Origin: a virus
Lineage: Duplodnaviria > Heunggongvirae > Uroviricota > Caudoviricetes
DNA: 11,296 bases
Reading direction: 5' to 3' (one strand)
Virus record (IMG/VR): IMGVR_UViG_2534682078_000023
A program made the position numbers and the translations under genes. A model generated the notes under the pieces. The model searched no databases. It was not told the origin of the DNA and worked only from the letters and a program-made list of their open reading frames with translations. Position 1 is the stretch's first letter. Each line of letters opens with the position of its first letter. Below are positions 5,248 to 10,028 of this stretch, in pieces.

Positions 5248-5341
5248 GCCGGATGATGGCGGAAGCTGTCATCTCTGGCTTGGGCGGGGCGTACCGCCTG
5301 CCGTTAACCGTCGCCGCTGGAAGGGGGATGTATGGCCATAA
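5248..5341 (+). pseudogene. FII: FII 3' portion, resuming after the IS (PDDGGSCHLWLGRGVPPAVNRRR...)
   Basis: The frame resumes with PDDGGSCHLWLGRGVPPAVNRRR. The expected stop position (5318-5320) reads TGG, so the frame continues WKGDVWP to TAA at 5339-5341, overlapping the Z start. Confidence 0.75.
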
Positions 5342-5910
5342 AAGGTCTTGAGCAGGCCGTTGAAAACCTCAGCCGTATCAGCAGAACGGCGGTGCCCGGT
5401 GCCGCCGCAATGGCCATTAACCGCGTTGCTTCATCCGCGATATCGCAGTCGGTGTCACAGGTTGCCCGTGAGACAAAGGTACGCCGGAAACTGGTAAAGG
5501 AAAGGGCCAGGCTGAAAAGGGCCACGGTCAAAAATCCGCAGGCCAGAATCAAGGTTAACCGGGGGGATTTGCCCGTAATCAAGCTGGGTAATGCGCGGGT
5601 TGTCCTTTCGCGCCGCAGGCGTCGTAAAAAGGGGCAGCGTTCATCCCTGAAAGGTGGCGGCAGCGTGCTTGTGGTGGGTAACCGTCGTATTCCCGGCGCG
5701 TTTATTCAGCAACTGAAAAATGGCCGGTGGCATGTTATGCAGCGTGTGGCCGGGAAAAACCGTTACCCCATTGATGTGGTGAAAATCCCGATGGCGGTGC
5801 CGCTGACCACGGCGTTTAAACAAAATATTGAGCGGATACGGCGTGAACGTCTTCCGAAAGAGCTGGGCTATGCGCTGCAGCATCAACTGAGGATGGTAAT
5901 AAAGCGATGA
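5332..5910 (+). CDS. Z: Minor tail protein Z (lambda gpZ-like, tail completion)
   Basis: Translation [192 protein letters not shown] (192 aa) is recognised as lambda gpZ. Confidence 0.9.
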   Translation: MAIKGLEQAVENLSRISRTAVPGAAAMAINRVASSAISQSVSQVARETKVRRKLVKERARLKRATVKNPQARIKVNRGDLPVIKLGNARVVLSRRRRRKKGQRSSLKGGGSVLVVGNRRIPGAFIQQLKNGRWHVMQRVAGKNRYPIDVVKIPMAVPLTTAFKQNIERIRRERLPKELGYALQHQLRMVIKR

Positions 5911-6302
5911 AACATACTGAACTCCGTGCAGCCGTACTGGATGCACTGGAGAAGCATGACACCGGGGCGACGTTTTTTGATGGTCGCCCCGCTGTTTTTG
6001 ATGAGGCGGATTTTCCGGCAGTTGCCGTTTATCTCACCGGCGCTGAATACACGGGCGAAGCGCTGGACAGCGATACCTGGCAGGCGGAGCTGCATATCGA
6101 AGTTTTCCTGCCTGCTCAGGTGCCGGATTCAGAGCTGGATGCGTGGATGGAGTCCCGGATTTATCCGGTGATGAGCGATATCCCGGCACTGTCAGAGTTG
6201 ATCACCAGTATGGTGGCCAGTGGCTATGACTACCGACGCGACGATGATGCGGGCCTGTGGAGTTCAGCCGATCTGACTTATGTCATTACCTATGAAATGT
6301 GA
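5907..6302 (+). CDS. U: Tail terminator protein U (lambda gpU-like)
   Basis: Translation [131 protein letters not shown] (131 aa). The ATGA start/stop overlap with Z is as in lambda. Confidence 0.9.
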
Positions 6303-6309
6303 GGACGCT

Positions 6310-7050: not shown

Positions 7051-7065
7051 TCCGGAGAGTCAGCG

Positions 7066-7488
7066 ATGTTCCTGAAAACCGAATCATTTGAACATAACGG
7101 CGTGACCGTCACGCTTTCTGAACTTTCAGCCCTGCAGCGTATTGAGCATCTCGCCCTGATGAAACGGCAGGCAGAACAGGCGGAGTCAGACAGCAACCGG
7201 AAGTTTACAGTGGAAGACGCCATCAGAACCGGTGCTTTTGTGGTGGCGATGTCCCTGTGGCATAACCATCCGCAGAAGACAAAGCAGCCTTCCATGAATG
7301 AAGCCGTTAAACAGATTGAGCAGGAAGTGCTTACCACCTGGCCCACAGAGGCAATTTCTCATGCTGAAAACGTGGTGTACCGGCTGTCCGGTATGTATGA
7401 GTTTGTGGTGAATGATGCCCCTGAACAGGCAGAGGACGCCGGGCCTGCAGAGCCTGTTTCTGCGGGAAAGTGTTCGACGGTGAGCTGA
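7066..7488 (+). CDS. G: Tail assembly chaperone G (lambda gpG-like)
   Basis: Translation MFLKTESFEHNGVTVTLSELSALQRIEHLALMKRQAEQAESDSNRKFTVEDAIRTGAFVVAMSLWHNHPQKTKQPSMNEAVKQIEQEVLTTWPTEAISHAENVVYRLSGMYEFVVNDAPEQAEDAGPAEPVSAGKCSTVS* (140 aa). Confidence 0.9.
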   Translation: MFLKTESFEHNGVTVTLSELSALQRIEHLALMKRQAEQAESDSNRKFTVEDAIRTGAFVVAMSLWHNHPQKTKQPSMNEAVKQIEQEVLTTWPTEAISHAENVVYRLSGMYEFVVNDAPEQAEDAGPAEPVSAGKCSTVS

Positions 7489-7904
7489 GTTTTGCCCTGA
7501 AACTGGCGCGCGAGATGGGGCGACCCGACTGGCGTGCCATGCTTGCCGGGATGTCATCCACGGAGTATGCCGACTGGCACCGCTTTTACAGTACCCATTA
7601 TTTTCATGATGTTCTGCTGGATATGCACTTTTCCGGGCTGACGTACACCGTGCTCAGCCTGTTTTTCAGCGATCCGGATATGCATCCGCTGGATTTCAGT
7701 CTGCTGAACCGGCGTGAGGCTGACGAAGAGCCTGAAGATGATGTGCTGATGCAGAAAGCGGCAGGGCTTGCCGGAGGCGTCCGCTTTGGCCCGGACGGGA
7801 ATGAAGTTATCCCCGCTTCCCCGGATGTGGCGGACATGACGGAGGATGACGTAATGCTGATGACAGTATCAGAAGGGATCGCAGGAGGAGTCCGGTATGG
7901 CTGA
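7066..7904 (+). CDS. T: Tail assembly chaperone G-T fusion produced by programmed -1 ribosomal frameshift at G_GGA_AAG (7464-7470)
   Basis: The -1 frame downstream of the slippery heptamer reads (K)VFDGELSFALKLAREMGRPDWRAMLAGMSSTEYADWHRFYSTHYFHDVLLDMHF...SEGIAGGVRYG*, recognised as lambda T, which has no independent initiation. The frame offset between G (frame 1) and T (frame 0) is exactly -1. Confidence 0.85.
7464..7470 (+). promoter_or_regulatory. Slippery heptamer GGGAAAG, the recoding signal for the G to G-T -1 frameshift
   Basis: The heptamer sits in the G frame as G_GGA_AAG, 18 nt before the G stop, in the same position as the classical lambda G/GT site. Confidence 0.8.
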
Positions 7905-10028
7905 ACCGGTAGGCGATCTGGTCGTTGATTTAAGTCTGGATGCGGCCAGATTTGACGAGCAGATGGCCAGAGTCAGGCGTCATTTTTCCGGTACGGAAAG
8001 TGATGCGAAAAAAACAGCGGCAGTCGTTGAACAGTCGCTGAGCCGACAGGCGCTGGCTGCACAGAAAGCGGGGATTTCCGTCGGGCAGTATAAAGCCGCC
8101 ATGCGTATGCTGCCTGCACAGTTCACCGACGTGGCCACGCAGCTTGCAGGCGGGCAAAGTCCGTGGCTGATCCTGCTGCAACAGGGGGGGCAGGTGAAGG
8201 ACTCCTTCGGCGGGATGATCCCCATGTTCAGGGGGCTTGCCGGTGCGATCACCCTGCCGATGGTGGGGGCCACCTCGCTGGCGGTGGCGACCGGTGCGCT
8301 GGCGTATGCCTGGTATCAGGGCAACTCAACCCTGTCCGATTTCAACAAAACGCTGGTCCTTTCCGGCAATCAGGCGGGACTGACGGCAGATCGTATGCTG
8401 GTCCTGTCCAGAGCCGGGCAGGCGGCAGGGCTGACGTTTAACCAGACCAGCGAGTCACTCAGCGCACTGGTTAAGGCGGGGGTAAGCGGTGAGGCTCAGA
8501 TTGCGTCCATCAGCCAGAGTGTGGCGCGTTTCTCCTCTGCATCCGGCGTGGAGGTGGACAAGGTCGCTGAAGCCTTCGGGAAGCTGACCACAGACCCGAC
8601 GTCGGGGCTGACGGCGATGGCACGCCAGTTCCATAACGTGACGGCGGAGCAGATTGCGTATGTTGCTCAGTTGCAGCGTTCCGGCGATGAAGCCGGGGCA
8701 TTGCAGGCGGCGAACGAGGCCGCAACGAAAGGGTTTGATGACCAGACCCGCCGCCTGAAAGAGAACATGGGCACGCTGGAGACCTGGGCAGACAGGACTG
8801 CACGGGCATTCAAATCCATGTGGGATGCGGTGCTGGATATTGGTCGTCCTGATACCGCGCAGGAGATGCTGATTAAGGCAGAGGCTGCGTTTAAGAAAGC
8901 AGACGACATCTGGAATCTGCGCAAGGATGATTATTTTGTTAACGATGAAGCGCGGGCGCGTTACTGGGATGATCGTGAAAAGGCCCGTCTTGCGCTTGAA
9001 GCCGCCCGAAAGAAGGCTGAGCAGCAGACTCAACAGGACAAAAATGCGCAGCAGCAGAGCGATACCGAAGCGTCACGGCTGAAATATACCGAAGAGGCGC
9101 AGAAGGCTTACGAACGGCTGCAGACGCCGCTGGAGAAATATACCGCCCGTCAGGAAGAACTGAACAAGGCACTGAAAGACGGGAAAATCCTGCAGGCGGA
9201 TTACAACACGCTGATGGCGGCGGCGAAAAAGGATTATGAAGCGACGCTGAAAAAGCCGAAACAGTCCGGCGTGAAGGTGTCTGCGGGCGATCGTCAGGAA
9301 GACAGTGCTCATGCTGCCCTGCTGACGCTTCAGGCAGAACTCCGGACGCTGGAGAAGCATGCCGGAGCAAATGAGAAAATCAGCCAGCAGCGCCGGGATT
9401 TGTGGAAGGCGGAGAGTCAGTTCGCGGTACTGGAGGAGGCGGCGCAACGTCGCCAGCTGTCTGCACAGGAGAAATCCCTGCTGGCGCATAAAGATGAGAC
9501 GCTGGAGTACAAACGCCAGCTGGCTGCACTTGGCGACAAGGTTACGTATCAGGAGTGCCTGAACGCGCTGGCGCAGCAGGCGGATAAATTCGCACAGCAG
9601 CAACGGGCAAAACGGGCCGCCATTGATGCGAAAAGCCGGGGGCTGACTGACCGGCAGGCAGAACGGGAAGCCACGGAACAGCGCCTGAAGGAACAGTATG
9701 GCGATAATCCGCTGGCGCTGAATAACGTCATGTCAGAGCAGAAAAAGACCTGGGCGGCTGAAGACCAGCTTCGCGGGAGCTGGATGGCAGGCCTGAAGTC
9801 CGGCTGGAGTGAGTGGGAAGAGAGCGCCACGGACAGTATGTCGCAGGTAAAAAGTGCAGCCACGCAGACCTTTGATGGTATTGCACAGAATATGGCGGCG
9901 ATGCTGACCGGCAGTGAGCAGAACTGGCGCAGCTTCACCCGTTCCGTGCTGTCCATGATGACAGAAATTCTGCTTAAGCAGGCAATGGTGGGGATTGTCG
10001 GGAGTATCGGCAGCGCCATTGGCGGGGC
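7897..10028 (+). pseudogene. H: Tail tape measure protein H (lambda gpH-like), truncated after about 711 codons by IS insertion
   Basis: Translation MAEPVGDLVVDLSLDAARFDEQMARVRRHFSGTESDAKK... ...LLKQAMVGIVGSIGSAIGG is recognised as lambda gpH (about 853 aa in lambda). From 10029 the frame reads IS-derived codons ([16 protein letters not shown]), so the C-terminal ~140 aa of H is separated or lost. Confidence 0.88.

Follow-up and report, generated by a model that had tools for sequence, protein, structure and literature searches.

Why does a truncated prophage carry a run of undamaged tail genes between two insertion sequences (IS), and does anything keep them there? The question is raised by an 11,296-nt stretch of viral DNA (class Caudoviricetes; IMG/VR record IMGVR_UViG_2534682078_000023), hereafter the window, whose first letter is position 1. 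In it, the lambda-like tail genes Z, U, V, G and T lie between two IS3-family elements, an IS911-like one and IS629. A first, sequence-only reading of the window had asked whether these genes, and the head genes upstream, are young pseudogene neighbours or are retained under selection. The age of the truncation, a nonsense allele of Z (S38*), a density of changes like that of a dead gene and the lack of a promoter-like site all point to young neighbours, and selection finds no support. Hence, the block between the two elements is very probably a passive middle piece of a recently truncated, drifting lambda-like prophage remnant at argU in O111 Shiga toxin-producing Escherichia coli, not kept by selection.

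The window matches many genomes of Shiga toxin-producing E. coli O111:H8/H-/NM at 100%. The reference strain 11128, in which it corresponds to 606,823-618,118, differs from it by 4 single-nucleotide polymorphisms (SNPs). In 11128, fimZ and the argU tRNA-Arg gene are followed by a C-terminal integrase fragment, a 5'-truncated S49 peptidase gene (C/nu3), D, E and FI. Next come FII, split by an IS3-family element, then Z, U, V, G, T and a 3'-truncated tape-measure gene. The locus ends with IS1203/IS629, an S-adenosylmethionine (SAM)-methyltransferase gene, a tail-fibre-assembly fragment (tfaX'), an alpha/beta hydrolase gene and ompT. RefSeq annotates the locus as pseudogenes and IS. We take the fimZ-argU position to be the site where K-12 carries the cryptic prophage DLP12, and the ybcY-like methyltransferase gene with tfaX' is presumably the right end of that site. 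The features of the block and its borders are:

3706-3986, plus strand: 5' part of FII, cut off by the IS911-like element (Pfam, RefSeq annotation, comparison with intact FII)
3987-5247, plus strand: TCT (3987-3989) and the IS911-like IS3-family element, called IS-A here (3990-5247, 1258 bp; orfA 4062-4373, orfB to 5239)
5248-5341, plus strand: 3' stub of FII (annotation, comparison with sister prophages)
5332-5910, plus strand: Z, tail completion protein, 192 aa, intact in the window (Pfam Minor_tail_Z)
5907-6302, plus strand: U, tail terminator, 131 aa, intact (Pfam Phage_tail_U)
6310-7050, plus strand: V, major tail tube protein, 246 aa from the ATG at 6310, intact (Pfam Phage_TTP_12 and Big_2)
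7066-7488, plus strand: G, tail assembly chaperone, 140 aa (Pfam Phage_TAC_2)
7470-7904, plus strand: T frame, tail assembly chaperone, 144 aa (Pfam Phage_tail_T)
7897-10028, plus strand: H', the tape-measure gene cut after codon 710 of 853 (Pfam TMP_2; RefSeq pseudogene)
10029-11296, plus strand: IS629/IS1203, left inverted repeat from 10029 (1310 bp in locus L001, that is, 42 nt beyond the window end)

Z, U, V, G and T are full length, match their Pfam families end to end and have the lengths and order known from lambda. The Z/U and T/H overlaps are present, the slippery heptamer for the -1 frameshift between G and T (GGGAAAG) is intact at 7464-7470, and V retains its C-terminal Ig-like domain in the Pfam comparison. 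Positions 5248-10030 align with lambda 7893-12675 at 98.64% identity, with 65 mismatches over 4783 nt and no gaps. The order and families (Z, U, V, G, the G-T frameshift, H) are those of a lambda-type siphovirus tail module, but the module is incomplete because H is cut and the tip genes M, L, K, I and J are deleted. The lambda segment FII-Z-U-V-G-T-H (NC_001416 7612-13103) shares with the remnant the gene order, the lengths of Z, U, V, G and T and the slippery heptamer. Unlike lambda, the remnant has an IS-split FII, an H cut at codon 711, no genes M to J, neither pR' nor Q, and a 7-codon 3' extension of FII that overlaps Z. FII of this prophage family measures 124 aa against 117 aa in lambda, an altered stop codon having added the 7 codons that overlap the Z start (5318-5341). 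H', truncated by IS629, takes up 2132 nt or 45% of the block, and its open reading frame (ORF) continues for 16 codons into IS629.

The sequence-only reading had described two different IS3-family elements in the same orientation around an intact Z-U-V-G-T cassette. Both points hold: IS-A and IS629 lie on the plus strand with the expected domains and repeats, and the five genes have full-length ORFs, Pfam matches and an intact slippery site. It had also called every gene of the 4.8-kb block full length with lambda-like overlaps, which is correct for Z, U, V, G, T and the overlaps but not for H, which is cut, nor for FII, of which the block holds only the 3' stub. As for the upstream Nu3-D-E-FI genes, D, E and FI are full length, but Nu3 begins 25 nt inside lambda nu3.

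The age of the truncation was obtained from sister prophages. In strains PV0838 (O26-like) and AUSMDU00014361, this prophage occupies the same site and is nearly complete. Their copies span the nin region, Q, a porin gene, the lysis genes, terminase, portal, C, D, E, FI, an intact FII and Z to T, followed by a full 853-aa H, M, L, K, I, J, lom, stf and tfa and then the same methyltransferase-tfaX'-ompT flank. This O26-type prophage thus shares with the O111 remnant the attachment site and the right end (methyltransferase, tfaX', alpha/beta hydrolase, ompT). The two have the same protein alleles of Z, V, G, T, D and FI, and their blocks are 99.8-99.9% identical. These comparisons demonstrate the structure and orthology of the O111 remnant. 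The O26-type prophage keeps about 35 kb more and has other lesions: K contains an internal stop in both sister prophages (L002 26241-26984; L022 20241-20984) and C is interrupted by ISCro1 in PV0838, so the prophages of the sister lineages were already defective. Against these sisters, the O111 copy has three specific truncating lesions, namely a deletion joining the integrase fragment to C (int'|'C), IS-A in FII, and IS629 in H together with a loss of about 10.5 kb.

Over the 4783 nt of the block, the O111 remnant differs from AUSMDU00014361 at 3 positions and from PV0838 at 11, without gaps. Between the remnant and the sister prophage, no nucleotide differs in Z, V, G and T, and the single difference in U is an O111-derived missense change, E52A (position 6061). 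The flanking chromosome differs at 7 of 11,958 nt (0.059%). At this rate, 1.5 substitutions are expected in the 2573 nt of Z to T, 3.2% of which would create a stop, and the probability of finding no nonsense change is 0.95. With a flank divergence of about 0.06% and identical Z-T genes, open frames are therefore the neutral expectation. This time scale, demonstrated here, also determines how the ratio of non-synonymous to synonymous substitution rates (dN/dS) can be read. The value of 0.15 for the block genes against lambda mirrors the history of the phage and not the present state of the remnant. The sequence-only reading had proposed dN/dS across orthologous loci as one way to decide; it could be computed, but for the period since truncation it is uninformative, there being zero differences in Z, V, G and T.

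Some of the differences between the orthologous prophages are unevenly placed. Ten of the 11 PV0838 differences cluster in H, at 8802-9897; eight of those (9112-9556 and 9897) are specific to PV0838 and are not seen in AUSMDU00014361. We rejected a reading of the 11 differences as point mutations, since the clustering in H resembles a recombination tract. All ten differences in the head region fall within Nu3 1366-1765. Between O111 and the O26 type, the differences in Nu3 1366-1765 and H 9112-9897 are tightly clustered and mostly synonymous. Such a distribution suggests gene-conversion tracts, perhaps with other resident lambdoid prophages as donors, and not point mutation.

A more recent record is provided by the O111 remnants themselves. 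The int'|'C junction at 1253/1254 was found by junction search in exactly 46 genomes, all of the O111 lineage; 41 of them have both IS and 5 are variants. We compared the 2573 nt of Z to T with 2124 nt of H', used as a dead-gene reference. The changes are:

Z to T: Z S38* (TCG to TAG), in the outbreak strains 95NR1 and 95JB1 (annotated 'internal stop')
Z to T: Z A155E, in 11128 and 2015C-3101
Z to T: V T179P, in FWSEC0005
Z to T: V S208P, in 11128
Z to T: Z K74K and G T48T, both synonymous, in SF4-1
H': Q433*, in 8B
H': E589K, in 2015C-3101
H': a 3-nt cluster in codons 463-465, shared by UTAK-13 and 7-32 9A
H': a 257-bp deletion between 11-nt repeats, in UTME-6

Z to T has 6 events (2.3 per kb) and H' has 4 (1.9 per kb). 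The spectrum demonstrated for Z to T comprises one nonsense, three missense and two synonymous changes. With 4 non-synonymous changes to 2 synonymous ones, it agrees with omega = 1, for which 76% non-synonymous changes are expected, and the fit of omega = 0.15 is marginal (P = 0.087). A density of events in Z to T like that in dead H' is no sign of selection. Stops and a neutral substitution pattern in close relatives were what the sequence-only reading had named as the mark of plain decay; Z S38* and the 4:2 spectrum are such changes, in a small sample. The cluster shared by UTAK-13 and 7-32 9A consists of three substitutions within 6 nt of H' (9285-9290) and could be a multinucleotide event or a tiny conversion tract.

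Transcription of the cassette was assessed with a consensus scan of positions 700-10100. The sole sigma-70-like match is the argU promoter at 817-844 (1 site against 4.2 expected by chance), and the scan found no promoter-like site ahead of the Z-T block. Q and pR' are deleted from the remnant. Z-U-V-G-T is probably transcribed at most by read-through, and we infer an absence of expression from this arrangement. Between E and FI (3260-3277) lies a strong terminator-like hairpin, ATGGCCC-TTCG-GGGCCAT followed by a run of T. This hairpin would limit upstream read-through into the tail genes in the absence of Q antitermination.

From the junctions we infer the order and the mechanism of the deletions. 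A lambda-like prophage would have integrated at argU and been vertically inherited in the O26/O111 group of enterohaemorrhagic E. coli (EHEC). A first deletion would have joined the integrase fragment to the middle of C/nu3, removing the regulatory, lysis, terminase and portal regions with Q and pR'. The IS911-like element would then have entered FII. Last, IS629 would have entered H, with 10.5 kb lost from the 3' end of H through tfa. Z, U, V, G and T would lie between the two IS simply as the genes that all three events left untouched, their frames presumably still open because essentially no substitutions have occurred since truncation. Left without a late promoter, they would now be drifting, with null and missense alleles and small deletions segregating in O111 and the IS occasionally lost with microhomology scars.

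IS-A has the ends TG...CA at 3990 and 5247 with terminal inverted repeats, HTH_Tnp_1 and rve domains in orfA and orfB, respectively, and a -1 frameshift motif AAAAAAG (A6G) at 4322, where RefSeq annotates a programmed frameshift. It scores 268.7 bits against NCBIfam transpos_IS3 (cutoff 160). With its orfA/orfB organization, frameshift motif and TG...CA repeats, IS-A belongs to the IS3 family, which is as far as NCBIfam and RefSeq assign it; its ends would make it IS911-like. The two halves of FII directly flank IS-A, showing an interruption in place. Compared with the intact FII of the sister strains, the 3-4 bp target-site duplication expected for a simple insertion is absent. The insert relative to intact FII consists of the IS plus three extra nucleotides, TCT, at the left end, which is unusual for a simple insertion of an IS3-family element. 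The second element, with 25-nt inverted repeats at L001 22029-22053 and 23314-23338, scores 316 bits against NCBIfam IS3; its RefSeq product is an IS1203-family transposase, and it belongs to IS629/IS1203. No target-site duplication flanks IS629 (GGC versus TAA). It adjoins the deletion of about 10.5 kb, which extends from the 3' end of H across M, L, K, I, J, lom, stf and tfa and stops 28 nt beyond tfa. The missing duplication fits an IS-adjacent deletion.

Among the variants, either IS can be absent with the block still in place (9662; E2863-type variants). In strain 9662 (L006 8950-9110), IS-A has been lost with 10 nt between two CCGGAT repeats, which leaves a frameshifted FII. In E2863 (L005 13780-13900) and SF26 102-1, IS629 has been lost with TAAGC at a GC microhomology, and the truncation of H stays. 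UTAK-22 has the E2863 scar minus one G in a run of four; we dropped the idea of two independent IS629 excisions, since an assembly error could account for the missing G. Excision of IS629 and other IS3-family elements by an IEE-dependent route is known in EHEC, and IEE has been reported in O111:H8 (PMC9943667). By analogy, the scars match IEE-promoted excision by microhomology-mediated end joining. They resemble that system in their 2-bp and 6-bp microhomologies and small adjacent deletions, with the difference that excision is deduced here from natural variants only.

If selection were at work, it could act through phages: the cassette might be kept for the help that it gives resident or superinfecting lambdoid phages, such as those encoding Shiga toxin (Stx), by providing proteins in trans or a template for marker rescue and mosaic formation. 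Material for such exchange exists. The block has 98.6% identity with lambda over 4.8 kb without gaps, homologous tail modules occur in at least 50 records of Stx-converting phages, and about 6 block-matching places per O111 genome are possible partners. The differences between orthologous prophages, clustered like conversion tracts in Nu3 and H, and the presence of the block in 46 of 46 genomes also fit this explanation. Defective lambdoid prophages can supply virion proteins and recombine with infecting phages, and some are under purifying selection, according to the summary in a review (PMC6379469) of Asadulghani 2009 (PMC2669165), De Paepe 2014 (PMC3945230) and Bobay 2014 (PMC4143005); the first two are cited there for complementation and recombination. 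We nevertheless hold selection for phage help to be unlikely at this locus. An outbreak clone is fixed for a nonsense allele of Z, there are more missense than synonymous changes, and events are as dense as in dead H'. With Q/qut deleted and no late promoter, a Q protein acting in trans would be without a target, and other homologous tail modules in the same genome, if intact, would make this copy redundant. Moreover, recombination potential needs no host-level selection on ORF integrity and would hardly produce it. That the promoter-less cassette is a recombination reservoir, or a low-level trans-complementing source for the tails of co-resident phages, selected via phage-mediated benefits to the lineage, seems to us decidedly improbable. 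Marker rescue by homologous recombination is physically plausible at this identity and length; it is a known phenomenon and requires no selection. The remnant is like the pool of defective prophages in EHEC in having intact structural genes among several homologous prophages, with clustered differences that suggest exchange. It differs in its polymorphism, which looks neutral. Complementation by defective prophages and recombination with them are established biology, and IS insertion, IS-adjacent deletion and IS loss have already been described for EHEC.

A benefit to the host itself, with the tail genes domesticated as a tailocin-like particle or a structural protein of the cell, is very improbable. 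Tail regions are reported among the better-conserved parts of defective lambdoid prophages (Bobay 2014, as cited in PMC6379469), V keeps its Ig-like domain, and the remnant is vertically inherited at a fixed locus in 46 O111 genomes and the sister lineages. But with H cut short, and with the fibre genes and M, L, K, I and J deleted, no tail can be built; the intact genes are Z, U, V, G and T alone, and the tip, fibre and lysis genes that a tailocin needs are missing, as is a promoter. Null and missense alleles segregate, and neither a dN/dS well below 1 nor freedom from disabling alleles was found (S38*, the 4:2 ratio and the H'-like density, at low power). Two transposase-encoding elements in direct orientation could also make the block a mobile unit, composite-transposon-like or prone to excision or inversion, that moves tail genes between prophages; this we regard as scarcely credible. 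IS-A and IS629 have no nucleotide similarity beyond a longest common word of 11 nt, their OrfB proteins are 27% identical and their inverted repeats differ, which makes IS-IS recombination implausible, rules out a composite transposon and agrees with the sequence-only reading, where homologous recombination between the two was judged unlikely. Both junctions are found together in 41 genomes, all of one lineage and at this chromosomal site only, with no second locus, plasmid or phage seen. In addition, the FII that IS-A interrupts is still in its place, a deletion ends at IS629, and the block remains where either IS is lost.

Several points speak against a purely passive block. The whole block is kept in all 46 genomes with the int'|'C junction, and no intact gene was taken out at any IS-excision scar; both would fit weak retention. 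The event count is small and its power low, with P no lower than 0.087 against omega = 0.15. Weak promoters, or ones carried by an IS, may escape the consensus scan, for example a promoter in the left inverted repeat (IRL) of IS-A, from which read-through would enter FII'-Z. No model that we considered for IS-A, with its extra TCT and no target-site duplication, was satisfactory. The retention of the block in every genome has little weight because the clone differs by only 0-4 SNPs per 11 kb. With these points taken into account, we maintain the reading of a young remnant in neutral drift. As a negative result, it indicates that intact phage structural genes bracketed by IS in EHEC are not evidence of domestication unless divergence time is considered. 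The locus also offers a tidy natural case of stepwise prophage erosion, with IS insertion, IS-adjacent deletion and later IS loss leaving microhomology scars.

The left end of the remnant contains the following features:

876-952, plus strand: argU tRNA-Arg gene, prophage attachment site (RefSeq annotation of the identical locus)
968-1249, minus strand: prophage integrase, C-terminal fragment, pseudogene (annotation and ORF list)
1253-1254: deletion junction from int' to the middle of C/nu3 (homology with the sister prophage and lambda begins at 1254; junction search)
1256-1834, plus strand: 3' part of C/nu3 (S49 peptidase/scaffold), without the nu3 start and first 8 codons
1844-2176, plus strand: D, full length (ORF list and annotation)
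2232-3257, plus strand: E, full length (ORF list and annotation)
3299-3694, plus strand: FI, full length (ORF list and annotation)

The int'|'C deletion took away the early region together with those for lysis, terminase and portal, and with them Q and pR'. The 'Nu3' frame of the window, starting as it does inside lambda nu3, has no start codon. The left deletion joins the integrase fragment, on the minus strand, to nu3; the GTG found in frame at 1262 merely resembles a start codon. In the adjoining sfm fimbrial operon, upstream of the window, the gene for a fimH-like adhesin (L001 10473-11472) carries a frameshift annotation in each of the three O111 loci examined that include this flank (11128, E2863 and 9662).

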